Sequence record: PP925840.1
DNA: 64,000 nucleotides
Direction: 5' to 3' (one strand)
Origin: Escherichia phage SholemSchwarzbard
Made by a program: the position numbers and the translations under genes. Positions 4,148 to 5,566 of the stretch are shown here, piece by piece. Below the pieces are notes generated by a model. The model made no database searches and was not told the origin of the DNA. It worked only from the letters and a program-made list of their open reading frames with translations. Position 1 is the first letter of the stretch. The number at the start of each line of letters is the position of its first letter.

Positions 4148-5566
4148 TTATGGATAGGTATAGATGATACCAGTTTCTAAAGCAGTTTTATGAATGATGT
4201 ATCCATTACGTGATTCTTGAACATCAACTTCTGGATAGTCTTTCATCATCTTCTGAAGGGTGTAACGATGCAGGTAGTATTTACTATCTGGATCTTCAGT
4301 TTTCCAATCTTTACCTTCTTCTGTCATTTTTTGGATTTCATCCATAACCCACCAACCGCACCAGATATAAGCTGAAGTACGATGTGGAAGAGGATGAACA
4401 TAAGGCAATTCACCTTCTGGTTCTGGAGCAACTTTATCAGTTACCTGAACTTGACCTTCTGCTGTGATAGTTTTGCTATCATAATCAGTGGCAGTAACAG
4501 TTGCAGTAACTTCAATAGTTTGACTTCCGATAGATGATGTATCAACGGTGTATACATTAGTTGATTCTTCTACAGGAGAAGAATCTTTCTTCCATGAATA
4601 TTCGATTTGTGCTTCTTCTGGAGCATCAGTGACATTAGCCGTAAATGTAGCCGAAGCATCTTGCTGAACGTTAATAGAAGGAGGAGTCAATGTAACTTGT
4701 GGATTCATTGTCTTCTTATTAACTGTCAATGATACTTCATTAGAAGTAACTTCCTTTTCATTGTAATTTTCTGCCGTTACTTGCGCTACGCATTTAATTC
4801 TTTTTACTCCACTTGTAGTTGGAGTATAGTTAAATGTAGAGTTAGTTTCTCCACCAACTTGTGAATCATCTACATACCATTTATATGTAGCAGACGCTCC
4901 AACAGGTTGAGAAACCAAGGCAGCAGTAAATTGAACTGGGGTTCCAATTACTCCAGCTGAAGGACTATCAGGAGTTACTGCTAAGGTAGTTGTCTGCGTC
5001 TTTTTATTAACAGTCAGTGACACTTCATTGGAAGTAACTTCCTTTGTATCATAATCTGTCGCGATTACTTGAGCTACACACTTAATTGTTTTAACTCCGC
5101 TTGTGTCAGGAGTGTAATTGAATGTAGCGTCAGTTGCTTCGCTTACAGGAGAACCGTCAACGTGCCATTGATACGTAGCAGATGCACCTGGCGGCTGTGA
5201 ATCTAAGGCAGCGGTAAATTGAACGGCTGTTCCGATTACTCCCTCCGGAGGACTAGCAGGAGTTACGGCTAATGTAGTTGTCTGTGTTTTATTTTGAACC
5301 GTGATAGTTGTAGTAGTTTCTGCTGTTTCAGGTTCAGATTCTGCAACTTGATTGGTTGCAACTACTTTAATAGTTTTTTGACCGGCAGGTCCTTTTAGTA
5401 CATAACTAAAAGTTGCTGACGTTTCTTCCTGCGGAGCGTCGTCTACAGTCCAAGCATATGTAATAGGTCCATCTCCAGTTTCACCACTGGGTGTAGCAGT
5501 AAACTGCTGAGTCTGATCTATAACTCCAGTAGGTGTTTTAGGAGTTATATCAACTGTAAAAGCCAT
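4148..5566 (-). CDS. hoc: Highly immunogenic outer capsid protein Hoc, with extra Ig-like domain
   Basis: 472 aa; N-terminus MAFTVDITPKTPTGV and C-terminal capsid-binding region match T4 Hoc as recalled; internal tandem Ig-like repeats. Confidence 0.9.
   Translation of the reverse strand: MAFTVDITPKTPTGVIDQTQQFTATPSGETGDGPITYAWTVDDAPQEETSATFSYVLKGPAGQKTIKVVATNQVAESEPETAETTTTITVQNKTQTTTLAVTPASPPEGVIGTAVQFTAALDSQPPGASATYQWHVDGSPVSEATDATFNYTPDTSGVKTIKCVAQVIATDYDTKEVTSNEVSLTVNKKTQTTTLAVTPDSPSAGVIGTPVQFTAALVSQPVGASATYKWYVDDSQVGGETNSTFNYTPTTSGVKRIKCVAQVTAENYNEKEVTSNEVSLTVNKKTMNPQVTLTPPSINVQQDASATFTANVTDAPEEAQIEYSWKKDSSPVEESTNVYTVDTSSIGSQTIEVTATVTATDYDSKTITAEGQVQVTDKVAPEPEGELPYVHPLPHRTSAYIWCGWWVMDEIQKMTEEGKDWKTEDPDSKYYLHRYTLQKMMKDYPEVDVQESRNGYIIHKTALETGIIYTYP
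4718..5293 (-). repeat. Tandem in-frame duplication of a 288-nt Ig-like domain unit within hoc
   Basis: aa 92-187 and 188-283 share TQTTTLAVTP.SP..GVIGT.VQFTAAL ... KEVTSNEVSLTVNKK; nucleotide units 5006-5293 and 4718-5005. Confidence 0.8.

Follow-up and report, generated by a model that had tools for sequence, protein, structure and literature searches.

The hoc gene of T4-type phages encodes a fibre that decorates the capsid and is non-essential. Its product has already been described as a conserved anchor carrying a variable string of immunoglobulin (Ig)-like domains (PMC10385173, PMC11853027). In T4, the C-terminal domain of Hoc binds the centre of the gp23* hexamer, 155 copies are present per head and three Ig-like domains form a fibre of ~180 Angstrom (PMC10385173). 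Functions attributed to Hoc include dispersal and aggregation as well as the binding of bacterial and mucosal glycans (PMC10385173, PMC9271167). The shorter Hoc-like proteins of PG7 and Muldoon and the Hoc of PNJ-9 have one or two Ig-like domains (PMC10385173, PMC11853027), while the long Hoc of Serratia phage Muldoon has 10 (PMC10385173). Here, we analysed a stretch of 64,000 nucleotides (nt) of Escherichia phage SholemSchwarzbard (sequence record PP925840.1), hereafter the window, whose hoc gene encodes 472 amino acids (aa). We propose, with a probability of roughly 0.85, that this length reflects an old in-frame duplication of Ig-like domain 2 (D2), which is part of a genus-wide polymorphism of one to three units turned over by unequal recombination and which has consequences for the fibre that we infer from the T4 protein.

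The open reading frame (ORF) at positions 4148-5566 of the window, on the minus strand, comprises 472 codons plus a stop codon and its predicted product has a mass of 51.1 kDa and an isoelectric point (pI) of 4.45. It is matched by PHROG 1149 'Hoc-like head decoration' with an expectation value (E) of 2e-141, by chain 5vf3_Z of T4 Hoc in a phmmer search of the PDB (E=1.4e-213) and by T4 Hoc in BLASTP (77% identity over 378 columns, E=0). The T4 gene (NC_000866, 110187-111317; 1131 nt) lies at the same locus and encodes a likewise acidic protein of 376 aa, with a mass of 40.4 kDa and a pI of 4.74 (NP_049793; PDB 5vf3, 8t1x; PMC10385173). The first-pass annotation of this sequence had given about 376 aa for T4 Hoc and deduced one Ig-like unit fewer, and both points were borne out by alignment with the T4 protein. 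Indeed, T4 has one 96-aa gap in the global alignment, which is elsewhere collinear and highly similar, so that the window protein corresponds to T4 Hoc plus one D2-type unit. The Hoc of PNJ-9, which lacks domain 3 (D3) (PMC11853027), and the long Hoc of Muldoon (PMC10385173) likewise keep the anchor while the Ig-like domains vary in number, but both are more distant in sequence and in PNJ-9 a different domain is affected.

The two D2-type units follow each other directly. Unit 1 (aa 92-187) and unit 2 (aa 188-283) map to positions 5006-5293 and 4718-5005 of the minus strand, exactly where the first-pass annotation had placed two 96-aa units, and the framework motifs that it listed (TQTTTLAVTP, GVIGT, VQFTAAL and KEVTSNEVSLTVNKK) are all found in the protein. 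The alignment of the two nucleotide segments proved gapless, with 219 of 288 nt and 73 of 96 aa identical (76% at both levels). A repeat search returned the same 288-nt direct repeat at 76% identity and Tandem Repeats Finder reported a period of 288 with 2.0 copies (score 691; 76-77% identity), which is the sole strong tandem repeat of the window. The nucleotide identity between the units stands 19.8 standard deviations above that of shuffled sequence. By comparison, the other Ig-like domains of the protein share 27-38 identical positions per ~100 aligned columns, and domain 1 (D1) shares only 34-37 with the D2-type units in ~98 aligned columns. The nucleotide differences are distributed over codon positions 1, 2 and 3 as 14, 13 and 42, and the longest identical tract between the units spans 15 nt (33 nt in L005, a related locus on a metagenomic contig). 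At the protein level, 15 of 39 loop positions differ versus 8 of 57 strand positions (Fisher p=0.008), the differences being concentrated in what are predicted to be loops. Peptides specific to unit 1 would come, for example, from GVIGTAVQFTAALDSQPPGASATYQWHVDGSPVSEATDATFNYTPDTSGVK.

Regarding the domain layout, we built an AlphaFold2 model of the protein from a 34-sequence alignment (mean predicted local distance difference test score, pLDDT, of 81). It contains four separate all-beta domains (beta-sandwiches) over aa 1-378, most ten-residue block means lying between 88 and 95. The allele would encode, from the N-terminus and always on the minus strand, an Ig-like D1 (aa 1-91, positions 5294-5566; pLDDT ~86-94) that aligns to T4 Hoc aa 1-91; unit 1 (pLDDT ~90-95), which falls in the T4 gap and has no T4 counterpart; unit 2, the orthologue of T4 D2, which contains the best Pfam PKD stretch (aa 195-267); an Ig-like domain equivalent to T4 D3 (aa 284-379, positions 4430-4717), which aligns to T4 aa 188-283, is a beta-sandwich in the model and is matched by Pfam Ig_3 and I-set at aa 289-373, in neither case reaching the cut-off; and a C-terminal capsid-binding domain (aa 380-472, positions 4151-4429), to which PHROG 21694 and 14282 match. 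For the units, where the first-pass annotation had suggested a Pfam search for Ig-like domains, PKD (32.3 bits, cut-off 23.5) and BiPBP_C (32.4 bits, cut-off 26.8) score above their cut-offs, with Ig_2, Ig_3 and I-set just under theirs. The model and Foldseek agree with this result, the best PDB matches being four-Ig fragments of Sidekick, Dscam1 and ICAM-5 (E ~1e-13), with the crystal structure of RB49 Hoc (3shs, E=5.6e-10) also returned. The units are thus predicted to be discrete Ig-like/PKD-type beta-sandwich domains. Confidence in the modelled C-terminal domain is low (pLDDT below 50), which probably reflects the near-invariance of the 34 aligned sequences in this stretch; the domain was instead assigned by comparing its sequence with the T4 domain of known structure. 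Indeed, 90 of the 92 residues at aa 381-472 are identical to T4, and the aromatic-rich motif PYVHPLPHR..YIWCGWWVMDE is invariant in the 34 aligned homologues.

The age of the duplication was assessed from the synonymous divergence (dS) and from the ratio of nonsynonymous to synonymous divergence (dN/dS). Between unit 1 and unit 2, dS reaches 1.07 (dN/dS 0.135), while orthologous segments of the window and T4 show values of 0.13-0.49 only: dS 0.41 and dN/dS 0.31 for D1, 0.49 and 0.22 for D3, 0.24 and 0.04 (0.038) for the C-terminal domain, 0.13 and 0.09 for the neighbouring gene inh, and 0.22 and 0.03 for rnlB. With the divergence between the units exceeding that between orthologues, the duplication appears to be old and to predate the split of the window hoc from T4 hoc. 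Unit 2 differs from T4 D2 by a dS of 0.27 (dN/dS 0.31), similar to the flanking genes, which identifies it as the T4 D2 orthologue; the corresponding values for unit 1 are 0.84 and 0.16. In-frame duplication followed by divergence, as had been advanced from the sequence of this genome, is hence supported by the 76% alignment and by the discrete Ig-like/PKD-type nature of the units. Both copies are under purifying selection (dN/dS 0.135), with differences mostly in loops. The word 'extra', which had been used for the additional domain, has to be qualified: T4 does lack one unit, but the dS values make it more likely that T4-type alleles are one unit short through loss. When the window and T4 are compared, the Ig-like domains evolve faster at the protein level (dN/dS 0.22-0.31 for D1-D3) than the capsid-binding domain (0.04) or inh and rnlB (0.03-0.09).

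The 472-aa form is by no means restricted to this phage. In a tblastn search of a phage collection, the best 60 hits were all single-piece matches of 472 codons with 92.6-97.2% identity, and some 185-205 of the 1367 matching phage records are estimated to contain a single-piece 1416-nt match. This estimate comes from an evenly spaced sample of the 1367 records, in which the first nine rows, with ranks up to ~186, were of the two-unit type, and it agrees with the 182 records that share at least 90% identity with the window Hoc; the sampled rows after this block were T4-type, their matches spanning 1128 nt or covering 79%. The 120 closest protein clusters comprise 81 of 375-376 aa, 30 of 468-472 aa and nine of 567-570 aa, the 376-, 472- and 568-aa classes having one, two and three D2-type units, respectively. 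Deposited Tequatrovirus genomes share the whole architecture: for example, the 472-aa Hoc proteins of Hafnia phage vB_HpaM_IsaacDaniel (97.2%) and of Escherichia phages TH09, JLBYU22 and PinkRuby (95-96%) align over their full length in a single piece and differ by point substitutions only. The 20-kb neighbourhood of the gene in the window is 98% identical to PinkRuby. The Hoc proteins of 568-570 aa, for instance in Escherichia phages UGKSEcP1 and UGKSEcP2, have the same 96-aa period and the same flanks with one more unit. Judging from these sequences, the two-unit Hoc is a common and ordinary allele state. The idea that the additional domain is a peculiarity of this genome is therefore not tenable, ~190 public phage records having the same form. 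The window unit 1 belongs to a rarer variant, with at most 90.6% identity to the other first units of the 120 closest clusters, and it is 97.9% identical to the lone D2 of the cluster P0117.

Several observations on these homologues may be added. In P0082 (472 aa) and P0080 (567 aa), the middle units are divergent D2-like paralogues with ~55% identity to their neighbour (...VEIGTATTFTANVSNQP...), implying that array expansion also took place deeper in history than the 76% pair of the window. A full-length T4-type Hoc of 472 aa (94.7%) is encoded in MG010123.1, a 32-kb record named 'Staphylococcus phage SAJK-IND', which is probably mislabelled or contaminated by a Tequatrovirus. Other Hoc clusters, including P0028, P0035 and P0004, occur in assemblies labelled Escherichia coli, Shigella sonnei and Salmonella, and Hoc clusters from bacterial assemblies are named 'endonuclease' or 'PKD domain-containing protein', which suggests lytic-phage contigs within bacterial assemblies and a drifting annotation. 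Finally, MN850622.1 (mobillu) and MN850590.1 (moha) have a 'repeat_region' feature under the hoc match.

Comparisons between close relatives reveal how the copy number changes. The related locus L002 (OP030805.1) shares 99.47% identity with the window over 7.1 kb, and its hoc gene differs by three D1 substitutions and by an indel of exactly 288 nt, so that unit 1 is lacking and unit 2 is the only D2-type unit. Another natural one-unit counterpart, of unit 1 type, occurs in JLBYU24. In a best-deletion scan, kept prefixes of x = 282-293 left 3 mismatches across the gene. The indel junction falls within the 11-nt tract CAGACAACTAC close to the beginning of unit 1 (positions 5274-5284, minus strand), whose identical partner copy is located near the start of unit 2 (positions 4986-4996, minus strand). 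A systematic scan retrieved five other pairs of nearly identical proteins in which one member has an additional 96-aa block, the junction being different in every pair: P0017/P0092 (aa 129-134), P0017/P0103 (aa 135-139), P0033/P0090 (aa 114-115), P0012/P0096 (aa 107-113) and P0001/P0009 (568 vs 472 aa; junction 272-286, with 5 mismatches besides the one unit). For P0017/P0092, a check of the DNA gave 8 mismatches across hoc, none of them in the repeat, and a junction in a mid-unit identity tract of 11 nt. Moreover, some single units are clean one-switch chimeras, with an N-terminal part of unit 1 type and a C-terminal part of unit 2 type. Recurrent one-unit differences and chimeric units are thus a well supported pattern among the sequences. 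Chimeric single units are expected when unequal recombination collapses a two-unit array and cannot be produced by a fresh duplication, and the pattern points to recurrent array collapse by unequal recombination. The units also retain signatures of their position, as histidine at unit position 44 is found in 13 of 37 first units and in none of 44 later units, and as position 13 in three-unit arrays reads G or N, then D, then A, while other segments are shuffled among units. Such signatures suggest that the arrays descend from a single ancestor. When 155 units were clustered by average linkage, only loose groups emerged, because the units are mosaics; a discrete tree of unit types was rejected, given that diagnostic motifs from the N-terminal end, the middle and the C-terminal end occur in free combination.

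Taken together, these data are best accommodated by a 288-nt tandem duplication that would have occurred in frame before the window and T4 genes diverged, the window allele then being the two-unit version of an array that ranges from one to three units (376, 472 and 568 aa) across the genus and whose copy number may be altered by unequal recombination at short identical tracts. As such recombination changes copy number, T4-type alleles are probably collapsed arrays. The additional domain would lengthen the fibre by about one Ig domain, i.e., by 40-45 Angstrom (~10.7 kDa), from ~180 to ~225 Angstrom as estimated by proportion, and would give each of the ~155 fibres per head a second binding surface of D2 type. 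Reach, valency and antigenicity could therefore be altered with capsid attachment unaltered, the latter being expected because the anchor domain is essentially identical to that of T4; the near-identical C-terminal domain would likewise suggest one monomer per gp23* hexamer centre and a protein dispensable for growth. An effect on fibre length and adherence, as had been expected from domain number, would be in line with the literature on T4 Hoc (PMC10385173, PMC11853027). In PNJ-9, D2 binds MUC2 via S183, L184 and T185 (PMC11853027). This SLT triad occurs twice in the window Hoc, at aa 183-185 and 279-281, one per unit, and the residues E29 and G33 of PNJ-6 are also present. The doubled triad may thus be regarded as a lead on candidate mucin-binding sites.

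Some of the evidence tempers this proposal. The polarity, with loss in T4-type alleles, depends on near-saturated dS values, and hoc is a mosaic whose units swap segments, so that its history need not follow a simple tree. Metagenome or read-archive assemblies are the source of several of the collapsed partners. For the window allele, we infer only what is said of fibre length, occupancy and binding. The SLT triad belongs to a conserved framework strand that is also present in T4 and in PNJ-6, and in PNJ-6 sites other than the triad have been reported as critical (PMC11853027); its duplication may therefore mean little. Furthermore, the difference between the window and L002 can equally be explained by the recombinational import of unit 1 from another two-unit allele, the three D1 substitutions accompanying the indel.

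This last point leads to a broader alternative, namely that phages with divergent hoc genes recombined during co-infection and thereby created, or re-created, the two-unit array, unit 1 having been imported horizontally. The mosaic nature of hoc, with the diagnostic residues of unit types shuffled among alleles, agrees with such exchanges; the window and L002 differ in the unit 1 block and three substitutions in the adjacent D1 with nothing downstream in hoc, as fits an imported D1-unit 1 patch; and the hoc genes of L005 and L006 are nearly identical (8 nt) within flanking genes that are 4% divergent, indicating allele exchange. Import would, however, explain how the allele arrived in this genome and not where the units originated, an old duplication being still required, and the position-specific signatures at positions 44 and 13 favour one ancestral array over random joining. 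We thus consider import as the full explanation improbable. Still less can be said for a recent D2 duplication specific to the lineage of this phage, with rapid divergence thereafter, which is what an 'extra domain' would literally mean. Although the units lie 288 nt apart in perfect register and have their framework motifs in common, a recent event would have yielded near-identical copies; the dS of ~1.07 between them is two to eight times the orthologous window-vs-T4 values, ~190 other phage records have orthologous two-unit arrays, and unit 1-like and unit 2-like sequences (98-99%) serve as the sole D2 elsewhere. On account of the dS values and of the distribution in other phages, this very unlikely scenario was rejected. 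Assembly errors classically arise at tandem repeats and several collapsed partners were assembled from metagenomes or read archives, yet a false duplication in the window or a false collapse in its partners can practically be dismissed, as the copies are 24% divergent with identical tracts of at most 15 nt (33 nt for L005), the junctions seen here fall within stretches of 11 nt, well under the word sizes that de Bruijn assemblers typically use (two ENA contigs among the related loci are named k141_ and k111_), the reading frame is intact with a dN/dS of 0.135, and ~190 independently sequenced isolates have the two-unit form.

The old duplication with later turnover by unequal recombination can be extended into a bolder proposal, which we find at present rather doubtful. 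The D2 module of Tequatrovirus Hoc might be an unstable array of one to three units that undergoes recurrent collapse, and perhaps re-expansion, at tracts of 11-15 nt, with segments shuffled during co-infection; selection would then act on fibre length and valency as rapidly changing properties of the capsid surface, and T4 Hoc would be a collapsed derivative. If this is true, unit turnover could, for example, balance adherence to mucus or cells against recognition by antibodies.

Bacterial surface proteins such as the alpha C/Rib proteins of group B streptococci, SasG of staphylococci and Esp of enterococci are familiar examples of tandem Ig-like repeats that vary in copy number through recombination. 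Like Hoc, these proteins combine an anchor with projecting beta-sandwich repeats and gain or lose whole repeats in frame, and whole-repeat in-frame differences between near-identical alleles were seen here in the window/L002 pair and in the five further pairs; the likeness is one of analogy, not of homology. The bacterial repeats are, however, usually almost identical DNA and change at high frequency, while the Hoc units, at 76% identity and with a longest tract of 15 nt, lack the near-identical repeats that permit high-frequency switching. With junctions confined to tracts of 11-15 nt, turnover of the Hoc units should be much slower.

As for novelty, the longer Hoc is in itself known and ordinary, the same 472-aa protein having been deposited many times. 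In the full-text literature searched, we found general statements on the variable number of Ig-like domains, with no explicit mention of a 472-aa Tequatrovirus form or of array turnover; the parts of PMC10385173 and PMC11853027 that were available contain neither a one-, two- or three-unit D2 polymorphism nor its turnover, and the available supplementary text of PMC10385173 contains none of the protein lengths sought. A D2 copy-number polymorphism with recurrent collapse in Tequatrovirus is hence a modest and testable addition. Its importance for the window itself is low, since hoc is correctly called and the longer allele is present in ~190 deposited genomes. It is relevant to those who use Hoc as a display scaffold and to research on mucus adherence. 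Indeed, results obtained with the four-domain T4 Hoc may not carry over to the approximately one-third of sampled Tequatrovirus-type records that have an additional D2-type domain. Moreover, the natural series of one, two and three units in near-identical backgrounds offers a ready test of the effect of fibre length and valency on adherence, aggregation and immunogenicity.

As for the surroundings of hoc, positions 1-20000 of the window are 97-98% identical to many Tequatrovirus genomes, the best match being Escherichia phage PinkRuby (98.3%). The gene order rnlB-24.2-24.3-hoc-inh-uvsW, deduced from the window ORFs and the T4 annotation, is that of T4, and loci L002-L006 show the same T4-like order, with hoc between inh and 24.3/24.2/rnlB. 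The inh ORF (5576-6256) ends only 9 nt before the hoc start. From direct reading of the sequence, a Shine-Dalgarno-like AAGGA (positions 5573-5577, minus strand) ends 6 nt before the hoc ATG and overlaps the inh stop codon. On the other side, 5 nt downstream of the hoc stop codon, a consensus scan gave a pattern match to a GC-rich, intrinsic-terminator-like hairpin (AAGGGGGCTTCGGCCCCTTT) followed by a T-rich tail (positions 4124-4143, minus strand). No exact copy of the late promoter TATAAATA occurs on the minus strand near inh-hoc, the search having been limited to exact matches. The 64-kb window contains no tRNA genes and no Rfam families at the gathering threshold, and no plus-strand ORF of at least 60 aa overlaps the hoc coding region at 4148-5566; non-coding explanations of the region were rejected on these three grounds.

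Finally, the genes on either side of hoc also vary between phages. At the inh-uvsW position, T4 has segE, a GIY-YIG homing endonuclease gene of 618 nt, which is absent from the window, where the intergenic region (6257-6306) spans only 50 nt, and from L002-L006. In L005 (positions 60-752), directly downstream of uvsW, an ORF of 230 aa contains a NUMOD3 domain and is homing-endonuclease-like; no such ORF is found next to uvsW in L002, L003, L004 or L006. It looks like another presence/absence polymorphism of a mobile endonuclease in the vicinity of hoc. On the opposite side, the homologue of gene 24.3 (positions 3842-4057, minus strand) encodes 71 aa in the window and 67-71 aa in the related loci, compared with 56 aa (171 nt) in T4, and its start codon or N-terminus thus appears to vary among loci.

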